Assembly (NCBI RefSeq): GCF_018977255.1 | Contig: NW_024704742.1 | Coordinates: 33,358,001 to 33,422,000, forward strand | Length of the DNA stretch: 64,000 nucleotides | Source of the DNA: Callorhinchus milii | Lineage: Eukaryota | Reading direction: 5' to 3' | In this document: piece after piece, positions 7,931 through 33,600 of the stretch | Layout: the number at the start of each line of letters is the position of its first letter | Position numbering within the stretch: the first letter of the stretch is position 1 | Made by a program: the position numbers and the translations under genes | Notes under the pieces: model-generated | The model's database searches: none | Told to the model about the DNA's origin: nothing | Seen by the model: only the letters and a program-made list of their open reading frames with translations

Positions 7931-8638
7931 AGGATTCTTACCTCTAGGATCTGCTTCAAATCCAGTTGAAACTGATAGGATAGAATTTTAACAAAAATCA
8001 TACTCACAATACACAACTCTGCTGACACTAAATCAATACTTACTCATAGAGACCAAATGATTTTTGCCTTGACAGCTGAGAATTGTCACACTGATTCCAC
8101 TTACTTAGGTTCGAGTGAAGGTCCGTGGATGGAGCAGAGTACAGGGAGCTTTATTTTGTATCCAACCAAACTATTCCTGATTTAAGAGTGCTTAATTATG
8201 ATAATATATGTCCAGAATGAGGAAATAAACATAAAATATTTTTATTTTCTGCAAAAACTATTCTTGTTTCAGTTTTTGTTTTTTTAAAATCCCCAAAACG
8301 CCCAGTGGAAGTAAAGTTTCAATTTTAATCTGACAAAAATAAAATGTAAAAATAATAAATCCGTACAGGTGATGCGAGATGAAAGCAGTTGTATCCTGCT
8401 CGATTTCCTAATTTGCGTATGGCAAATGTTTAAACGATCATCAGGTTTACTGAATGTTCTGAACCCAAATATGAGTGTGATGTATTGACTGAAGAAAACA
8501 TGATGTTTCATTTTAACAGGGGATTTGACAGGATCTGAAAGGAAAAGTCACAGCCAAAGTGGGAAAGAATTTCTGTTACGGTTTTATCTGTTTGGGGTAG
8601 AAGCCATGCCAGTGCGCTGATGTGTATCAAGTACTCGC

Positions 8639-8737
8639 CTGTGACTGCGCATTGATGTTGGCTGCCTGCTTCACTAGTGTTTTCACCACTTCACCTTGAC
8701 CCGCCAGGGATGCGATGTGTAGGGCTGAGTTTCCCTT
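8639..8737 (-). CDS. ANK2: Ankyrin-B internal coding exon (ankyrin repeat) [33 protein letters not shown]
   Basis: 99 nt, phase 0/0, acceptor tgtgtttaacag, donor CAG|gcgagt. Closely matches the recalled human ANK2 segment [33 protein letters not shown]. Confidence 0.93.
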
Positions 8738-12905: not shown

Positions 12906-13004
12906 CTTAGTCGATGAATCAACAGTTGCACCTCTCTCCAGTAATTCTTGCACAAGGTCCACATGTCCTTCCTTGGCTGCCAGATGCAATGCATTAAGGC
13001 CATT
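12906..13004 (-). CDS. ANK2: Ankyrin-B internal coding exon (ankyrin repeat) [33 protein letters not shown]
   Basis: 99 nt, phase 0/0, acceptor tctttgttgcag, donor AAG|gtaatg. Matches recalled human ANK2 [33 protein letters not shown]. Confidence 0.95.
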
Positions 13005-18825: not shown

Positions 18826-18927
18826 CTGATTGGATGTATTGATGTCTATACCTCCCTTGAGGTACTCGAGTACTTTATCCACATTCCCTGCTCTGGCAGC
18901 GCGGAGGAAGCTTGCGTTGCTGTCAGA
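18826..18927 (-). CDS. ANK2: Ankyrin-B first common coding exon [34 protein letters not shown]
   Basis: 102 nt, phase 0/0, acceptor ttctttcttttgcag, donor CAG|gtacgt. [15 protein letters not shown] and YLKGGIDIN match ANK2 rather than ANK1 or ANK3. Confidence 0.96.
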
Positions 18928-19657
18928 CTGCAAAAGAAAGAATACCCCAAATGAGTCATACATTTTAAAACCTGCTCCACCAAATGGCTGCTGAACAGCA
19001 AATGGCAATCCCATAGAGTGCCTAGTAAATAGATCACAATCAAGTTGAAAGTTTACCCCAAAATTGTGAGTTTTCAGAGTTCACAGCATTCAGATTTCAA
19101 ACAGCAATTCTGGGCAGCCTACCGTAACGTCAGTTATCTCCAAAGAACTTTCTCTGTGTTTATAAAACTGCTATTCAAACTTTTTTTTGAAACCATCTCT
19201 CTGCAAAATTGAAATGGCCACCAGATCTAAATTGCAGTATGTTTCAATAGATTTCTTAATAGGAAATATGTAATTATTGATTTCTGTATCATCAAATATG
19301 CAAAAAACACATTATCAAATGTCTAAATCATTGAATTATATTAACTTAATATTCTATAAAAGAGAGAAATGTGCTGAAGAAGAATAATAATAATAGAGAA
19401 AACTCCTGATAACTTGACCCTGACATGTCACTATTACATAAGTCAACATGCTGTCAATATCCTGAACACATTTATTTATGTATTTATATCTGTGCCTAAT
19501 TCACCACTCCAGATAACTTGTCACTGAACCCTTTTCCTTTGGAGTGACGAATTATCAGGAGTTCAATGTAAAACCTTCATTTGATTCAGTGCTTTTTTCA
19601 AGTCGTCAAAACGTCTCAAATCTACACAGGATTTACTATAAAGCATAGTGACTGTAT

Positions 19658-20584
19658 AACTCAACTCTATTTTTCCACCTCTCTTTGCGACCCCCAGTCC
19701 CCTGATGTTCTGTCGGCCTGCCTGTCAGACCTCAGGGGCTGGGTGAGCACAAATTTTCTTCAGCTGAACTTTGACAAGATGGAAGCCATACTCTTTGGCT
19801 CTTGTCGACGTCTAAAATCTCACGGTTCTCACCTCCTCCACCTACCCAAACTCCCCCTAAACTCTCCGAGCCCATACGCAACCTAGGCTTCATGTTCAAC
19901 CCCCAATTATCCTTCCTCCCCCACATCTAGTCTCTCACCAGCACCGCTTTCTTCCACCTCCAACGCATTGCCCGTCTCCACCAATACTTCACTCCAAAAG
20001 CCGCTGAAACCCTGGTCCATGCCTTTCCCACCTCTCGGCTGGACTATTCAAAGTCGCCGGCCTCCCCTCCACTACCATCCATAAAATCCAGATTATTCAA
20101 AACTCTGCTGCCCGCATTCTCACCCGCACCAAACTCCACTCCCCGATTACCCCAGTCCTTGTCAGACTGCACTGGCTGCCTGTCCCAGAGAGGATCGATT
20201 TCAAGATCGTCACCCTTGTATTCAAATCCCTCCACTCCCCTGCACCCCCCTACCTCTCTGATCTCCTCTCTCCTCACAACAGTGCCCATTGCCTTCGTTC
20301 CTTCGGGTCTGGCCTCATCCTTGTCCCCCGAGTCCTCCGCTCCACCCTCGGAGGCCGTGCCTTCAGCCACTATGTCCCGAGGCTCTGGAGCTCCTTTCCT
20401 CACTCCCTTCACCTCATCCCTTCTCTTCCTACTTTCAGGTCTCTGCTGAAGACCTTTCTTTTCGACCGCGCCTTTGGTCACCTTCCTCCCCCTCCCCCTG
20501 ACTCAGCCCCGGGATCTATTACTTTGAAGTTACTGAGATGCCGTCCGACGTGGAGGGTGCTATATAAATCCAAGTTGTTGTTGT
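19658..20584 (+). mobile_element. L2 LINE, 5'-truncated at the RT (DD)TQLY motif, inserted into a minus-strand SINE
   Basis: TQLYFS...NFLQLNFDKMEAILFG, RNLGFMF, LHWLPVPERIDFKI, LKTFLF; tail 'gtgctatataaatccaagttgttgttg'. Confidence 0.92.
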
Positions 20585-22378
20585 ATATGTAGGTGTTTGC
20601 AGAAGCCAATTTGCACACAGCAGTGTCCCGAAAACAGCCATGACCAATTTAATTGAGAGGATTGTTGGCCAAGACACTGGGAGAAACTCTTTGAACAGTG
20701 CCATGGGATCTTTAATGTCCACTTGAACAGAAAGACAACGTCTTTCTGTTCAAGTGGAACAAGTTCAACGTCTATTCCAAAGAACGAATTTCTGGCAATG
20801 CAGTATTGCAAGCATTGCATTGGTTAACATCTACCTTAGCATTCTTAACTAATTTAATTGTTCAGAAATTTTGCCCACAAAGTATACAGTCAATTCACTT
20901 TACGGTATATTCCGTGAACCGCTTTGAGGCATCTCAAAGATGTGATAAGGCGCTATATCAAATGCAAGGCTTATTATTATTATTAATTGTATATTTTGTG
21001 TGAAGAATTTTGTTCCATAGTTTAAATTAAGCCCTAATTCAAGGAACAGTGATACAAAATATTAGTTTCCCCACCAGAATTCAGAAATTGCTGCTGACAC
21101 AATCACTAGGGATACAAATCAAAAACACTTAACAAAACTTAAGATGGCTACAGCCCAATCCGCAGCATTAAATCAATGCAAACAATATATTCCTCCACCC
21201 TGTTCTGTTGGGTACTTTCAATTCAGTGTAAAAGGGACAAAATAATTCTGTATTAAATCCAAATTTCAGCACCAGGTAAGTTAGCAAGAGGAGCCTGCGG
21301 TCTTTAGCTAAACTGCATTACGTTTCATAAACTGGTCAACAGGGAGGGGTTGCATCTCAAACTCCGCCAATAGAAAGGATTGAAATTCTGCTGCACTGCA
21401 GTGATCTCACTGCACAGGATTCGCCCGTGTCCTCACGCATACCTTCTCCAGGATAAATACAGCGAAGGAATTGAATTTTAAATATAAATTGCAGAAACAT
21501 TTCTCTGCACCATGGATGCCACTGTCCCCTCTCTAATCACAAAGCTTTCTTTATTTAAATTCATCTCCTAGGGAAAGCTGAGCTTAGGAATGTACTGAAA
21601 AAAAACCTGACAGCTGCATTAACATGCAGTGCCAGAGACTGCAGCGACTGGTATATAACACTGCAGCCTATCCCTATTCTGATTTTATCACTGACACTAT
21701 TCTGATAATTGCTGTTTGAAATCTGAATTCTGTACACGTGATACAATGCTTCAGGGACTGTGATGCCTTCTATAGTCCACACTGGCAAAAGGTGTGGTAG
21801 CAATATAGCAACAGCATCAAAGTTCTCGTTTCTCACGGACTTCTGTAATTTAGATTTTGTAATTTAGCCATGATCACTAGTGGGTTTGACAAGAAGGTCT
21901 GCAAATGCTTTGCGTGTGGGTTTTTGTTAAAGTGGTCCTTGGTACTGTGTTGAATAGTTTCAATTTTGTGTATCTCCATCACTGGTATCCTACCAAGCTA
22001 GTTCAGTATACAAAGCAGTGTATTACAGCAATGGCTGAGCATGTAGCATCCATGTGAGTCAGCCAGCCCACAGAGTTGGCACAAAACAAAGCCTCATTGC
22101 TCTCCTTGATCCACATCAACCACTGCAGTGGCCAAACTCATGTTTCTTCATGCAACTTGCTTCACTGAATTGACGTCAAGGTTCAAAATATCACATGCAT
22201 TTTACTTTCTATTTTTCTCTGCCTGCCAGAACGTCATTATGTTACGTTACATGATCTATATTTGCACACCCTACACATCAGCTCATAGTTGTGAAATACT
22301 GTAGCTATTATTGAATGTAGAAATTACTATTAAATATGTGGCCGTGGAGGGTAAAATGCTGGAACACATAGTCAGTGT

Positions 22379-22834: not shown

Positions 22835-25189
22835 CTTGCTCGGATTTTGATTTTGGAGTAAGATATTTCTGCAGCCTGTTGGGTAATCACAAATGTACTG
22901 CTGTACATCTCTGGGCCATTAGAGATGAGTGTTAACACAATCCATTGTAATGTAGTAAGATTTATACCACAGTATCAGGATGCCTCCTTTCTCTATATAT
23001 GCCAGGAATTGCTGTGTATTTAACAGCACAGCAGGGCTTTCACAAATATGACACCGACACATCTACATAAACTGATCACTCTGTTCCACTAGTCAATGAC
23101 CATTGGCCCTATTTACATGAAGTCAATAATATCAATACTTTGCCTGACAATATTAAATCCATTCAATAATGACAAGAGTTGCTCTTCTGGACACTTTTCA
23201 TGCAACTGCTGCTTGGCTGAATGATGTTCCCTCAGAAGGTCAATTCATTCTGAATGGACGTTTGGCACAGGAAAAATAACGATGGGTTACCATAATTTGT
23301 CAGAAACAAGTAAATGTAGAATAAAGTACAATTGGTCACATGTGACCCTTCAGTATGAGTTCTGGTGATGGTCCGTACTCAACTCTACTTTTGGCCTTGG
23401 GTTGCTGATTTAAACCTGACCTGCAAGATTTTGTGTTTTTATTTCAGGGGAAAGATGATGGAAAGCACGGTCAGAACGGTATATCTTGAGATGGACCTTG
23501 AATGAGGGGAGACAGTAAGTGAGTCAGAGTAGAATGTAACCTTTACTATTACAATTTAAAGGGATAGTGTCTTTTTAACTAAAAAGTAAAGATGAAAATG
23601 ATGTTAATTATGTCAATGGGGGAAAAATGCAACATCCAATGCAACATTGTTAATAATAATGATTATTATAATGATAGTCATTGCATTTGATATAGTGCCA
23701 GTCATTGACTAGGACATTACCAGGAGCAAAAAATCCAACGATTATGTTTCACTCTCCCCAGATCTCTTTCCAACCTGTACCTAAACTAGGTGCTTTTCTG
23801 AACAGCATTCCCATTTCATACCAAAAAATGGAAAGTATACCTTGCAGAACACTCAATAGTTTGGTTTGGAGTCTCTTAAATATGTATGTATTTAAATTCT
23901 ATGTATTTAAATATACCCAGTGATTTTTGGCCTATTATCTTTCTTACAACTGGTAAATATCCTCTGTAACGAATTGCCCTCATTGTGTAAAGAAATATGC
24001 TCAGAGATCAACAAGTTCAGTGCAAATTAATTTTTACATGTTTTTAATAATAATCCTTGCATTTGATATAGCGCTTTTCACGTCGGGAGGACGTCCCAAA
24101 GCGCTTCACAGAACACACTGTTTTTAGTTTGGTTTTGATTTAGTTTTATTATATATTTATTTTCACTGCTCGTTCAAATGATTACAGGGATATGTGAACA
24201 AGTTGCATTTACTGATATATAAAGAAAGCAGTAGATATTAGCTGATATCACAAGATAAAATTACCGGGGGCAGAGATGGCGATGAAAATTTAACTGAAAT
24301 ATGAGGATTTTGATGACTCTGTATTCAGGAAAATGTCAGAGGCCAACTAATGAAAATAATATTTGTGTTCCATTTGGTAGTGCTGGTCTAATTGACCACT
24401 TGCACTGTGAAGTTGCCTTAGTTACATTAAAGGTTAGCCCCAGTACAGCTGAAGGTTGAATGCATAATTGCAAGCAGATCACATCAATACTGATGAAGAG
24501 GGTTTTTTCTCAGCATTGCAAGAATTTTTTTAATATTGGCTACAAGTTTGTCTATAATAATTCTGAGGTACATTGTAAAGTCTTCAGAACAACATTGAGT
24601 GCTGCCACAGCTGAGATCAGAGGCCCGAAATTCCACCTGTAAGACCATTTTGTCTTAAAATTTAACATTATGTAGAATATTCTTCTGCTTAATTTTTAAA
24701 AAAGAATCATATGACAAATGAAAAAAACACAAAATTAAAATAAAGACATACAGATATGTACACAACACTATTTTGCTAACAGAAGGTGTCCTGACCTTTA
24801 GAGAAAGGTATTCAGGCTTGTTTTGGAGAAAGCATACAGCATTTTGAAGAGCTGCTTCCTAAGATTTTAGGCACGAGAAAACAAAATTTGCTGCAGCGAT
24901 AAATTTCCGAATTTGCTAACTGTAAACCTTACTTTAAATTGACTGAATAAGAATTTAGAAATATAGCCTAGAAAGGACAGAAGTGGATTTATAATAATAC
25001 ACAAAATTCTCGGCCGGCCAGACCAATGTGAGGGAGATCGGGTCCAGTGAGCCAGAATTTCCAGCTAAGTGTGATTATGATGCCGGTAACGACATTTACC
25101 AGCTTTTTTCAATGATGAAAAGTGCTGGTAAAAGCCGCTATCGGCATTGTAATTGTTTGAATCTCATAATCAGAAGCCAGTGAATATTC

Positions 25190-25398: not shown

Positions 25399-27784
25399 AG
25401 ACATTTAAATCAAACCCAGAATTTTCACTTTAACCTCGATCTCTCTAACCCCAACATCCAATTGATAACTCAGTTGGAGTGAATGAATGTCCCCTACAAT
25501 CTTGACAGCTGAGCCTTTGCAGAATTCATCTAGCTCTGATACGCTCAGGTATCTACATCCCCTGAGATCTGTTTTACTTTTGACATTGAAAGAGTAAAAC
25601 TGACATGAGATTAGTCACAAGAAATGAGTCGAAGACATTCTTCCAAAGCTCCCGAGAGTTTGGTTATAAAGGATGGCAAAGAATGTGTGACCCCAAGATG
25701 ACACCTTCGTGTAAATTGGGTCATTGTGTGGAGCATGGCATTGATAAAATGTTTCAGAACCTATTTAATAGGACAGGAAAAGGCTGGATGATTCAAGATG
25801 TTTCTGTGGTTAGTGGGCTGAAATGTAATTTTAAACACAGTACTTTTTTTATTGAACAATGAATGATGAAATTAAATTTGCCTACAAAATACACAGTCAT
25901 TGCAGTTGACATTAAAAATCCTGTGAAGTGCTTCGAGACATTTTCACTCTGTGATAGACGCTATACCAAATGCAATTATTAATGTTGTAATACAGGGATG
26001 TTAAGACCCTGAGAGCTTTATTTGATCTATTAACTGTAACACTATTCCTTTCCAAACATTTGTAATAGACAATTTCATCCTGCAAAACAACCATATATGC
26101 AGTAAGTTTAAGTGTGAAATATGAAGATGTCTGCTCTCAGATACGCTGTAATATAGCACCACCATCTTATTTACAGAGAACATCAATGGTTTTAAATAAC
26201 AAAACAAAAACAAATGTGTTTCCCTCCTTATGCGATGTTTACAGGAAACTGGCCACCAATAACAAATTATTTTGTACAAAAAACATCAATAACTTGCATT
26301 TATGTAGTGCCCTTCACATGGGGTAGCATGGGGAGCGCAGAATAACGAATAGATTGATACAAGCAGAATGATTCTCAGCCTGCAGCGTGTTCCAGGACAT
26401 GTTCAAGACCTCAAAGCTTTGAGCTGAGTTTGTAAACCGCAAGAATGAAGCTCAAACAGTTTATCAATGCCAAACCGTTTGCTTTCTGGAGCCTTGTGGT
26501 ATTCTACACAATATATAGATTTAAGGGATCTTCATCTTCTTCGATTGGTTACTTTTACCTTCTCATCCTTTCATGCAGCAGAAGCTTTTTAGCACATCGC
26601 AATGGCGTAGGCTTCAATGACTGTCTCATGCAGTACAACAGATAAATAATCCTTGCAGTGATGCAGATTATATTTAACTGAATGATACAGGAGCATACAA
26701 AGCCATCACCTCCAATACCTATTCTGCCTAAATGTGTGACGTGTTTAATGATAATTGGCAGGATTGGAAATGACTGCTCAGACATGAGGCTCTTATGTTG
26801 TCGTCACATCCATTGATGTTTAATGTTGGTGGCACCTTCAGTACACTTTCCCCTTAGGTATAAGTGTGAGCAACAGCATGATGCAGGTTACCTCTAATTA
26901 GATTAAAATACCAATCATGAAATATCACTGCACATCTGACCAGATGAGTAGCTGTTGTAATAGCAGCAAGTTTGTACCCAGGATGACCTTGTGGGACAAG
27001 CACATGTAAAATACTTTTTGAATTTAAAGCTGCACAAATTGTTGGCCAAACCCACCGCACATGACAATGGAGTATAGTAAAGCGTAATCTTAAACACAGC
27101 CTTCATTTCAAAGCGGGTTTCCTGTAAATTCTTTTAAGAACTACAGAAAACCATCTTCAAGGTTAAGAATGAATTCAACGATTTGCCAAATTCAGGATGC
27201 TCTGAAATGCTACATAAATAAATCCAGGTGGAATTTCCCCCCCAGTAATTCACATAATCATTATTTCTACCAATCAACATATGAAAGATCCCAGTCTGTG
27301 AGGGAAAACAAAAGCAAATAAAATCAAATCATTGCTTTTCAGTGTTCTCACATGGGGAAAACACTGGCTGCTTAGGTTGGAAAATCAGCATCATTCACAC
27401 TGGAATATTCCTGCATAGATCCCATCTGAATGACTGTACTCTGATCATGGAGATAGAACATAACTAGAAACACTTTCCGTACATGCACACAAGCACAAAG
27501 ATATAAAGAACCCCTGCATTAAGAGCGAGAGGGAGGGAGAGAGAGAGAGAAAAAGGAACAAAGGAAGCCCGCCAGCCAGCCAAAAACTTTTTTGAAGGTA
27601 AACAAGGTCATTTTATTCTAACAAAGTCCCACAAACTGCCAAAAAAATGAAGATGAAACACATTATTCACCTAAATTAATAGAGATGGGTGATGTGGTGG
27701 TAACTAGTTTGATAAAATTAAATATGTACAATATTAACAATTATAAGAATCCATTGACTGTCCGCAAGTAGTTAAGTATAAATT

Positions 27785-28087
27785 ATAATAATAATAATCC
27801 CTACATTTGATACAGTGCTTTTCACGTCTTCTCGATGTGTCAATGTGCTTCACAGAATAGACTGCAAAGTGAATTGACAGTATATTTGTGGGCGAAACAC
27901 GGCAGCCAATTGCGCACAAACAGTCGTGGATTGAAAATGACCAATTTATTATTGTTTTGTTTTTTTGGAGGGATTATTATTAGGCGTGTGAGTAAGGAAA
28001 CTTGCCCAAGGTTTCGCCCTGACTGGAATTGAACCCAGGTGTCTCGCTTGCAAGGCGAGTGCTCTAACCACTGAGCTACAGCACTCC
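27785..28087 (-). mobile_element. tRNA(Ala-like)-derived SINE, family 2, with L2-like tail
   Basis: Head ggagtgctgtagctcagtggttagagcactcgccttgcaagcgag...gggttcaattcc (TGC anticodon loop), followed by body and (TTA)n tail. Confidence 0.88.
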
Positions 28088-29100
28088 ACAATTAAACAGT
28101 AACGTAGATAAAGTTGTTAGTTTTTCAACGCTTAGCATTATTAATTTCCAGTGTACAGGATCTTTACAAAATATTTCATATCATATAGGACTTTGAAACT
28201 GCTTAATGGCCTGAGACAGGAAGGGGATAAAGTAGCCTTGTCTATGGGATACAAAAGTACATTTCAAAATGATAGTAGTCATTTGAGAGAATGTTTGAGT
28301 GTATTTCTTGTTTCCTTCTAACAGAAAACAGTGGTTCACAGCCCAGAAAAACTTATTGAAATGGTAAATGTAAAACCAGAATGGGACTTTTACGGGCTTG
28401 TTTTATTTGCTGATTGTACACTATTTCTGTCATACGAGTAGTGCGTGAAACGAGTCCAAGAGACAATAAAGTACAATCTCTCTTTCATGCAGTGCCCTAG
28501 AGACGTGACAGATTCCTCCAAACAGTGTATTTGGCCAAAATTAACCAATGCTTTAAAGAACGCACTTATTCTTGGTCCAAGCAGCTCTTTAAAAGTTGGT
28601 AATGCCGCAGCCTGATGTGCAACTGAGCCAAGCTCACGAGTTTAATCTGCATCTGTACTGCTTTAGTGGTGTTTAGCCAGGGTAATAATAGGGAGCCACA
28701 ACTGGCCTCCATGTTCCCTGGCTTGAGAGGAAAGTCGGTCAGTGTTCTCACTCATGAATAGTAACCAGTGACAGCTACTGGAAAGTACACATGTTTGGAA
28801 AGGTTCAGGCTTGCGTGTGATGCTCCCCACTGCCTGGGCTCACGCATCAAGTAGAGTCCCTTGAGTGAAGTACCAGAAGACAACTGGTCCTTGTGGAATG
28901 TTGGCACTGATGTCTTTAGTCAGTGCATACAACATTGGAGGAGAGAAAGCTGGATGAGAAGCGGATATTTTTATCCAACAGTACTATTAAATATTATTTT
29001 GTGAGCAGTTTTTCCTTCAAAGATATGTTGAAACAGTGAAATTGTTACTATTAAAAAATAATAATTTGATGTAGCTTCCTGTGAGAAGCTATATCAAAGG

Positions 29101-31390: not shown

Positions 31391-33139
31391 CTTCCCATAC
31401 GTGTTATTTCAGAAGCAATGATTATACACTGAATACCTCAACTAACAGCGAGATTCAACATAGGCCCAATGTTTTAAATAGCAATTTTACTTTCTGTCTG
31501 TTTGTTGGACTTTTCAGGTTTTTTCTTAGGTGAAAATGACCCGAAAGTGAAACGCCAGCCATGATCACAACTTCTGCTCTGTGAATAGCACATTTTTAGC
31601 CCTAGAAGATACATTACAATTTGAAGTTTCCCTGATAAACCATCACAGATATGAAAGGTTCCTGTATTCACCCTGTAAAAACTCTCCATAAGGCTGTGAC
31701 ACAATCCCTCTCTCTAAATGTGTGGATATCACTTATAACTGCAACCCATGTTGAATATATGGAATACATGGCAAGAGTGAAGCAGCAGCTTTCTCTGCAG
31801 GGATGCTGAGCACAAGCAACTTCTCTTAAGATATCTGATCCACAACTGCTAGGGCTGTACAAGTGAAATAAGCTCTGGATCTTACTGTCATATCTGTACA
31901 ATTAAATTTTTCTGTGAAAACTCTTGGTTGAACTTTACAACTTCTACAGTACCTTTCTACAGTACCAGGAAGAATAACCTCAAACTTAGCATTTTTGTTA
32001 CAAGGGCAATGAAATCTAGTAATCATAATGCATTTGATATGCAAGGTTTTCTGGAACCCTGCATTGCTTACAATTGTTAAGAAATAGTTCAGCGCAAAAT
32101 AATTTACATTTCTGATACCACATGCATGAAATACTGATCCACTAATTGTGTAATCCTACCAATCCTTCCGGGAGTACAAATAACTCAATATTAACTTTGA
32201 TGAGAAGTTTAAACTGCTAACGGGGCTGTGTTATTTTGTGGTCGTTGTGAAAAAGGATACATATCCTAATGACAACTCTCTAAAACCGAGTGCTAAGAGT
32301 TCTCAAACTTTCGCAATACTGAGCTACAGAGAGCCTAGAGGTCAAGATGTAGACAACATAAAAACAGCTTCTCAAAAAGTGTACTTACAACATTTTAGAA
32401 AACGTTAATGTCAGAGTTAGTCAACTTAACATTAAGATAAAAGCATCCGGGGCATAGGAACATATTCTGAACCAATTGATGCATCCTTCACCCCTCAGTT
32501 GATTGTTGATTGACCCAATCAATGCTTCTATATTTAACAATTGTACCGAGTTCACAAGATCCAGCTGTCACAATGGCTTAAAGTCAATGGAATGGGACGC
32601 CTGCCCTCATCTTGGGTGTCTGTGCCTTGATTTAATAAATAACAACGATGTTCCTTCTAAATAAGAATGTAACACTGCATATTACTAGTGCAATTTTTTC
32701 AGTTTGTTTTCTAAAAAGTTCACAACATAAAGACTCCTCCACCCCGCTGTCATTCCGACTCAATAACCTCATTTCATGACACAAAGCTGGACGCCATCCA
32801 ACATTGCAACAATCACTCAATTAGTAAGTTCCCGTTGTTGCTCTCCCCGGTCAGGAACAGCTTCCCGACACCAGCAGTTACTCTTGTGGTGTGTAAACTT
32901 TTTGTCACGTTCTACGGACTCGACATTCACATTGGCCTGGAACTGCAGGAGATGTCCCAGCACAATCAGACTGGCTTTCCAGCTTCTTATCAGCACCGTG
33001 ACAGCAACAGTTCCCTGCTACGGCAAGTTATAGCATCCGTCTCCCAGAGTAATGTGTAAGTTGTTTTGTTCAAAGTCAAATTCTGCAGCAGGTTCATTCT
33101 TTACACATGCCACTTTAGATTTCATTCACAAATACTCAC

Positions 33140-33265
33140 CAGTGCCTCGGGTTCTTTGCTTATGTCAGTGTAATAGTCGGGGAATGTGTCTATGTTCTGA
33201 CTTTCTGTACTCTTCTGAATACCCTTGTCTGTACGACAAGAGTGGCAAAGTGCTGCGTTGCCCAT
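33140..33265 (-). CDS. ANK2: Candidate alternative first coding exon of ANK2: MGNAALCHSCRTDKGIQKSTESQNIDTFPDYYTDISKEPEAL
   Basis: Strong Kozak context gctATGg; in-frame TGA five codons upstream; 42 open codons; consensus donor CTG|gtgagt in phase 0, matching the exon at 18927; unique, relatively CpG-rich context. Confidence 0.62.
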
Positions 33266-33600
33266 AGCAGTGCCCTGTCAACAGCTGCCCTGGGGAAGGA
33301 GTACAGCCACTAGAGTTCCAACCAAGCACGGGCACAATCCTGATAGTCACTGTCGCTCTGCTGCCCCAAACCACTCCTCACGCTCACTGCTGGCTACCCA
33401 ACTATGAAAGAACTGGAAACCCTGCACAGTTGGCAGCAAACTCCAACCATTCCCAATTCAGGCACCGCCTGGCTATTTTTACACCCACCAGGCAAACTAT
33501 GTATGCAAATGACGACCTGGAGTGGAAAACTCAGAGCTCATGCTGACGTTTCTGTCTGGCAGCAAATGGCATATCTCGCGTGCTTATTAAAAGGACGAAA
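33266..33600 (-). promoter_or_regulatory. Putative promoter/5' UTR of the candidate first exon
   Basis: MEF2/TATA-like GTAAAAATAG (33482-33473), M-CAT CATTCC (33448-33453), E-boxes CAGCTG (33282) and CAGTTG (33427), octamer ATGCAAAT (33503-33510). Confidence 0.35.

Follow-up and report, generated by a model that had tools for sequence, protein, structure and literature searches.

A conserved alternative first exon of ankyrin-2 in Callorhinchus milii and its putative membrane-anchoring head

The ankyrin-2 locus

The window analyzed here is a stretch of 64,000 nucleotides from Callorhinchus milii (G000:C1:33358001-33422000), the minus strand of which carries exons 2 to 4 of the gene for ankyrin-2 (ankyrin-B) and, upstream of exon 2, a short open reading frame beginning with Met-Gly-Asn-Ala (MGNA) that is the subject of this study. 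Its ATG occupies 33265-33263 and is embedded in gctATGg (G at both -3 and +4). An in-frame TGA (33280-33278) precedes this ATG by five codons, and the frame runs for 42 codons (MGNAALCHSCRTDKGIQKSTESQNIDTFPDYYTDISKEPEAL, that is MGNAALCHSC...KEPEAL). Its final codon is CTG, the last base of which is 33140, and GTGAGT comes next (33139-33134). The acceptor of exon 2 reads ttctttcttttgcag, followed directly by TCT, with 18927 as the first exon base, and exon 2 (18927-18826) encodes 34 residues, after which the sequence continues with gtacgt. Both boundaries, that of the MGNA exon and that of exon 2, are of phase 0, and the MGNA exon can, therefore, be joined to exon 2 in frame. A first-pass annotation, made from the letters of the window alone, had described this ATG, the upstream stop, the 42 codons, the donor and the phase match to 18927, and direct reading of the sequence confirms all of them.

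A 27-residue gar query for the canonical first exon of ankyrin-2 gave no match in the genome. A degenerate pattern (RKRPKK followed by GT) matched G000:C1:33474504-33474523 on the minus strand, with two further matches on other contigs, and a reversed control pattern gave five. The canonical first exon (MMGDEAQKSDGDKYNGTNHRRKRPKK, followed by GTAAAT) lies at G000:C1:33474504-33474584 on the minus strand (locus L002), outside the window. The MGNA exon is ~83 kb downstream of it and 14.2 kb upstream of exon 2; because the two first exons are on the same contig and in this order, the MGNA exon lies in intron 1, where the first-pass annotation had placed it. A search of this genome for further copies of the exon (E up to 10) matched the exon itself and nothing else. 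The exon is presumably driven by its own promoter. With it, the ankyrin repeats would be preceded by a 42-residue tail in place of the basic N-terminus (MMGDEAQK...RRKRPKK) of the canonical form.

By its sequence alone, the MGNA frame is not beyond chance. A script run over the same strand from 18927 to 64000 (45 kb) found 15 ATG frames of at least five codons that end at a phase-0 donor of the form GT[AG]AG[TAG], and five of these frames, that of MGNA included, are at least 25 codons long (43, 35, 42, 47 and 30 codons). Base composition gives no more than a mild hint, with a local G+C content of 0.46-0.51 over 32700-33600 and of 0.33-0.42 in the flanks to both sides. The MGNA exon rises above chance because it is conserved in other species. 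This calls for caution in general: a perfect-looking combination of ATG, frame and donor is not rare in an intron, and it was cross-species comparison alone that separated this exon from its four look-alikes.

Homologous N-termini in other vertebrates

Word-index protein searches with the 42-mer gave no match among proteins of 75-2000 or of 23-74 amino acids, but these blanks are weak, because the index missed even P0003, one of the sequences recovered by an exhaustive phmmer search with the same query over 1,835,955,588 representatives. The exhaustive search returned three matches (P0005, P0003 and P0004). P0005 is the Ankyrin-2 of Acipenser ruthenus (RXM35185.1), a protein of 4168 residues, residues 1-41 of which match residues 1-40 of the query (E 4.4e-05); its sequence runs MGNAPLCHSCHSDKG...PDYYGYEINKDPEPP and then passes directly into SDSNTSFLRAAR. 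P0003 (67% identity, E 1.7e-11), which carries no name, is a frame of 107 residues translated from a Logan contig of 1161 bases. It spans the homologous ATG and has V-S directly after ...KEPEAL, as a donor of the GTGAGT type would translate. The third match, P0004 (668 amino acids), is a tandem-repeat protein matching only residues 17-41 of the query, and was rejected as spurious.

The translated flanks of P0003 can also be aligned with the window, over 33060-33400 on the minus strand, with C.CLV..LVA...G.C..GTA upstream and KS.V.C.KN.P in the intronic part downstream. Either the contig would come from a close relative or else the surroundings of the exon would themselves be conserved.

A search with residues 1-43 of P0005 among proteins of 2292-7294 residues gave six candidates, all of which matched: P0005 itself, an ankyrin-2-like protein of Huso huso, isoforms X6 and X1 of Lepisosteus oculatus, isoform X3 of Anas acuta (representing a cluster of 94 members) and isoform X23 of Melanerpes formicivorus (a cluster of 24 members). 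In all of these proteins (P0005-P0010), SDSN[AT]SFLRAAR stands directly after the homologous stretch. These bony-fish (gar and sturgeon) and bird counterparts were predicted by automated gene modelling, and the N-termini of P0005, L. oculatus X1 (P0008), A. acuta X3 (P0009, XP_068538118.1) and M. formicivorus X23 (P0010) are 50-67% identical to the 42-mer of the window. Eight named species were found to carry the MGNA N-terminus: two sturgeons, the spotted gar, four ducks and one woodpecker. The proposal of the first-pass annotation that the frame is an alternative first exon of ankyrin-B is, thus, borne out by homologous N-termini that head named ankyrin-2 proteins at the same exon 2 boundary.

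Forty-eight ankyrin-2 proteins from public collections, including the members of three clusters, were sorted by the sequence that precedes SDSN[AT]SFLRAAR. An MGNA-type start is present in 37 of the 48, a count that reflects the building of gene models and not transcript abundance, and all but one of the 37 begin at Met, the mallard model P0021 having a 68-residue in-frame extension upstream of the MGNA stretch. The other 11 N-termini comprise five of the canonical type (MNEE...RRKRPKK), three that start MAHAAASIKK..., and one each of MASMLQK, MASPTSS... and MDSMVSG.... The ankyrin-2 isoforms P0025, P0026 and P0030 of Pogoniulus pusillus start MAHAAASIKKVRESELEERERNLEKERKRQRKISRADRKRK, which we take to resemble the ankyrin-G N-terminus of the exon 1e type; this suggests that some first exons are common to the ankyrin paralogues, and that the MGNA exon is not one of them.

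Nine distinct MGNA-type sequences were obtained, including those of the window and of P0003, and eight were aligned, the sequence from Aythya, which differs from that of A. acuta by one residue, being left out. Fifteen of the 46 columns of this alignment are invariant (M1, G2, N3, A4, C7, C10, K14, G15, D26, P29, D30, Y31, Y32, K37 and P39). The sequences share the head M-G-N-A-x-[LI]-C-x-x-C together with K-G, PDYY and K-x-P (8/8), and the tails vary from 42 to 45 residues with preservation of the reading frame. The copy in the window differs from the seven others in having Arg11 instead of His and in lacking one to three extra residues after PDYY. The first-pass annotation had raised the question of whether Gly2 and the nearby cysteines are conserved; G2, C7 and C10 are invariant in all eight sequences.

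Transcript evidence and the status of the exon

Four runs (X1-X4) were compared, none of which is recorded as RNA; X1 (217 million letters) is marked 'RNA?'. X2-X4 behave as DNA, with an even depth of ~7-15 in unique bins, single-base differences and contigs that run across 33140 (records 14, 23 and 31). The summed depth of X1 is 129 in the bin of exon 2, as against 0.6-5 in unique intronic bins, the DNA runs being flat there, but this is a hint of RNA only, because contig depth is not a valid basis for ranking parts of a gene. Record 6 of X1 (467 letters, depth 5.55) fits 33140-33577 from its letter 30 on, with zero differences. Letters 1-29 do not match the sequence from 33139 downward, so that the contig departs from the genome at the very base predicted by the donor. 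The leader of the exon would be at least 312 bases long if the contig represents a single transcript. The joint between 33140 and 18927 was not among the 15 joints listed, beyond which there are 4246 more. Single consensus matches to the octamer ATTTGCAT (33505-33512, minus strand) and to CGTCA, a half cyclic AMP response element (33543-33547, minus strand), are present in the leader/promoter region.

Several observations count against an alternative first exon conserved in this form. The 29 leading letters of X1 record 6 lie elsewhere and belong only putatively to exon 2, and X1 is RNA by guess. The depth of this record is like that of the X1 pieces of the flanking intron (2.66-5.2), and three ATGs (33572, 33541 and 33450) stand in the leader, with an 18-codon frame running from the one at 33450 to 33394. 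Since its flanks are alignable with the window, P0003 would come from a close relative and provides little evidence of coding selection. No mammal, amphibian, reptile, teleost or named shark is among the matches to residues 1-43 of P0005, although this is a weak negative, because only cluster representatives sharing words with the sturgeon sequence could appear.

Two alternatives to a genuine first exon have to be weighed here. A chance open frame next to a chance donor, without function, would agree with the presence of five comparable frames of at least 25 codons within the same 45 kb and with the finding of no protein of this species with an MGNA N-terminus among representatives of 23-2000 residues. 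It would leave the same N-terminus at the same ankyrin-2 exon boundary in eight named species to coincidence, together with 15 invariant columns, length changes that keep the frame and an RNA-like contig whose fit to the genome ends precisely at the donor; the chance reading appears all but refuted by the cross-species matches and is considered extremely improbable. The exon could also be an internal or 5'-extended exon transcribed from the canonical promoter, in which case the ATG at 33265 would not be the true start. Lying inside intron 1, the exon is crossed by the canonical pre-mRNA; acceptor-like sequences are present at ~33291 (tccttccccag, followed by g) and just before the ATG (ttgacag, followed by g), and the in-frame extension of the mallard model points the same way. 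However, the frame is closed by the TGA five codons upstream of the ATG, all but one of the 37 homologous models begin at Met, and X1 record 6 is unbroken from 33140 to 33577, across both acceptor-like sites, so that such an origin seems quite unlikely. Judged by its homologues, then, the MGNA frame represents an alternative first exon of ankyrin-2 that is both genuine and ancient; that it is real and spliced to exon 2 is very probable.

Features of the window

The coordinates of the exon, its leader, its splice sites and the downstream exons of the gene are collected in Table 1.

Table 1. Features of the ankyrin-2 gene in the window (positions numbered from the first letter of the window)
Feature	Positions	Strand	Basis or remark
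Alternative first exon, coding part (42 codons)	33140..33265	-	Homologous to N-termini of named ankyrin-2 proteins
Leader (5' untranslated), minimum extent	33266..33577	-	Contig record 6 of run X1, zero differences
Splice donor GTGAGT after CTG	33134..33139	-	Break of X1 record 6; V-S in P0003
Pyrimidine tract and AG acceptor (ttctttcttttgcag) of exon 2	18928..18942	-	Direct reading
Ankyrin-2 exon 2, phase 0 at both ends, shared target of first exons	18826..18927	-	Same boundary in P0005-P0010
Exon 3 (33 residues), context	12906..13004	-	Ankyrin-repeat exon
Exon 4 (33 residues), context, then GCGAGT	8639..8737	-	Ankyrin-repeat exon

Exon 4 (...NINAQSQ) is followed by GCGAGT at 8633-8638 (minus strand), and a GC-AG intron is likely here if the exon end of the orthologues applies. 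On the plus strand, a long open frame containing ...LVHAFPTSRLDY... extends over 19931-20446, and presumably resembles a retroelement remnant. The summed contig depth of the DNA-like runs reaches 10,000-450,000 over this region and its neighbours (~19300-21270, 23940-24600 and 27270-28600), all of these being interspersed repeats.

The N-terminal head and its possible lipidation

Both cysteines of the head (C7 and C10, 8/8) are specified by the isoform-specific first exon and fall in roughly the first ten residues. Together with the invariant Gly2, these cysteines suggest, rather than prove, a fatty-acid membrane anchor. The invariant head would then be a lipidation cassette that lets the isoform attach to membranes by itself. 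The likeliest mode would be S-acylation of Cys7 and Cys10, aided by the hydrophobic residue at position 6, as in the double-cysteine N-termini of the DLG/PSD-95 alpha isoforms, and N-myristoylation of Gly2 may or may not come before this S-acylation.

The fit of the head to the N-myristoyltransferase motif, M-G-[^DEFRWY]-X-[^DEKR]-[ACGST]-[KR] (Castrec 2018, quoted in PMC9018777), the last position of which is given there as not obligatory, is incomplete. Positions 2, 3 and 5 are satisfied in all eight MGNA sequences (G2, N3 and A/P5). The misfits, which speak against myristoylation, are at position 6, where seven sequences have Leu and one has Ile instead of A, C, G, S or T, and at position 7, where all eight have Cys and none has Lys or Arg. 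In the N-terminal heptapeptide of G-alpha-o (Nt7), moreover, the replacement of Ser6 by Phe, Val, Arg or Asn gave a cytosolic location, according to PMC9018777, in which these substitutions are said to have been chosen since an earlier study had reported the residues concerned as possible at position 6. A lipid anchor would be a sensible reading of the cysteines but a questionable one of the glycine. Hisactophilin (Phe6) and GCAP1 (Glu6) are exceptions that are myristoylated, both with Asn3, like the MGNA family. Myristoylation of Gly2 is regarded as rather unlikely because of the misfit at positions 6 and 7, yet these Asn3 exceptions keep it from being dismissed. Beside a hydrophobic residue, cysteines such as Cys7/Cys10 do not require myristate for S-acylation, which is more likely to be part of an anchor here than is myristoylation of Gly2, and the chances that some lipid or other is attached to the head appear, from its sequence, to be about even.

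The tail beyond the head gives few indications of its own. No family was found in Pfam for two peptides at E up to 10, and the ESM Atlas gave no usable match for the tail. In an AlphaFold2 model of gar residues 1-246, built with three orthologues, residues 1-44 have a predicted local distance difference test (pLDDT) score of 28-32 and no secondary structure, whereas the repeats score 90-97; the tail is, therefore, predicted to be flexible. The same model leaves the tail undocked, and intramolecular binding is neither supported nor excluded by it. The conservation of K14, G15, D26, PDYY and K-x-P exceeds the needs of an anchor, and points to an additional or alternative binding function.

The exon might, accordingly, be real and its tail free of lipid, with the head, PDYY and K-x-P acting as linear motifs that bind partner proteins, or with C7-x-x-C10, along with His8 or His11, coordinating a metal that bridges two chains, as the zinc clasp of Lck and CD4 does. 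Predicted disorder is typical of regions of linear motifs, the residues at positions 6 (Leu/Ile) and 7 (Cys) break the N-myristoyltransferase motif in all eight sequences, and K14, G15, D26, P29, D30, Y31, Y32, K37 and P39 are invariant beyond the requirement of a lipid anchor; His11 is present in seven of the eight sequences and His8 in four. What such binding would not readily explain is an invariant Gly2 with Asn3 and Ala4 right behind the start codon, which is difficult to account for in an internal binding motif, and two cysteines beside a hydrophobic residue near the N-terminus are the usual make-up for S-acylation (as in DLG2 alpha). A tail without lipid, the metal-binding variant included, is considered possible though not probable. 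The lipidation and partner-binding readings do not exclude each other, and a real, ancient exon with a putative lipidation head is, as a whole, moderately probable and the best explanation available.

Internal palmitoylation, which the first-pass annotation had limited to ankyrin-G, has to be extended to ankyrin-B, this limitation being outdated. Ankyrin-B is S-palmitoylated by zDHHC17 at Cys60 and at four more cysteines of the repeat domain, and Cys70 of ankyrin-G, or Cys60 of ankyrin-B, is the principal palmitoylation site and is called conserved among vertebrate ankyrins in PMC10098127. Lipid modification is the known route by which ankyrins are held at membranes (PMC10098127; review PMC12202978). 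These cysteines, however, belong to the ankyrin repeats and are shared by all isoforms. In the window, the equivalent of Cys60 is a Ser (TCC) in exon 2 (...IDINTSNQ, 18835-18837, minus strand). Cys occupies this place in P0005-P0010 (sturgeon, gar and bird) and in both paralogues of the same genome (...INICNQ in L006 and ...INTCNQ in L007), and no variant at 18835-18837 was among the differences listed for X2-X4, beyond which there are 73 more. With Ser in place of Cys60 in this lineage, S-acylation would fall mainly to the N-terminal cassette if dual lipidation is true. In its fullest form, the proposal would be that of a promoter switch predating the split between cartilaginous and bony vertebrates and producing a dually lipidated ankyrin-B, with myristoyl-Gly2 despite Leu/Ile6 and with palmitoyl-Cys7/Cys10, that binds membranes self-sufficiently, independently of the repeat-domain cysteines, and has its main S-acylation site in the head; all of this together is judged improbable.

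Comparison with known N-terminal anchors and first exons

Src-family kinases and G-alpha subunits are examples of dual acylation of the Src homology 4 (SH4) type, and PKA C-alpha starts MGNAAAAKK. The MGNA head resembles these in its Met-Gly-Asn-Ala start and in combining Gly2 with cysteines among residues 1-10. It differs at position 6, which holds Leu/Ile and not Ser/Thr/Ala/Cys/Gly, and at position 7, which lacks Lys/Arg, and its cysteines are at positions 7 and 10 instead of 3-6. The PSD-95 alpha isoforms have an N-terminal double cysteine of similar type with the spacing C-x-C. The DLG2/PSD-95 alpha N-termini have no Gly2, and their C-x-C (that of PSD-95) contrasts with the putatively acylated C-x-x-C of the MGNA head. 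The DLG2/PSD-93 alpha isoforms are otherwise alike, in that alternative promoters add a double-cysteine palmitoylation N-terminus that confers a plasma membrane location (PMC6389146).

Within the ankyrins, the nearest arrangement is that of mouse Ank3, which has five first exons (1a-1e), each short and coding, with several promoters; all splice to a common exon 2 at the start of the repeat domain (PMC4449188). None of these first exons is described as a lipid anchor in that study. The small ankyrin-1 isoforms (ank1.5 and its relatives; PMC2172649 and the title of Birkenmeier 1998 cited therein) are alike in that a promoter switch, through an alternative first exon, gives a hydrophobic N-terminal anchor. 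Their anchor, however, is a transmembrane segment, and the protein that carries it is truncated and has no ankyrin repeats, whereas the MGNA tail is hydrophilic and stands on the full-length protein. A myristoylation site has been proposed in an internal 'little exon' of ANK3, after caspase cleavage (PMC6175894); this is a different exon of a different gene.

Significance for ankyrin biology

No description of the MGNA N-terminus was found in the literature searched for ankyrin-2/ankyrin-B first exons and myristoylation, and the word stem 'myristoyl' is absent from a 2025 review of ankyrin modifications (PMC12202978). An 'ANK2' that appears in a paper on the myristoylome is a repeat of ACBD6, not ankyrin-2. 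The first-pass annotation had called the exon hidden and its N-terminus unrecognised. The second part holds insofar as no paper describing it was found, but 37 of the 48 public ankyrin-2 proteins already start in this way, and the exon is genuine yet not hidden, because the automated models of sturgeons, gar and birds carry it. The value of the present observation is, thus, not the discovery of an exon already contained in the automated models of several vertebrates, but the recognition of a head that is fixed from this genome to birds and, as far as searches reach, undescribed in print. The absence of mammals among the matches, if it reflects a real loss, would account for the lack of any description of the isoform in ankyrin research.

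In the current view, ankyrins reach membranes via partner proteins and via palmitoylation of the repeat domain. A conserved isoform with an N-terminal lipid cassette of its own, if true, would add a promoter-controlled placing of ankyrin-B on particular membranes, and mutations of the head (G2A and C7A/C10A) would then provide a simple handle on what membrane attachment contributes.

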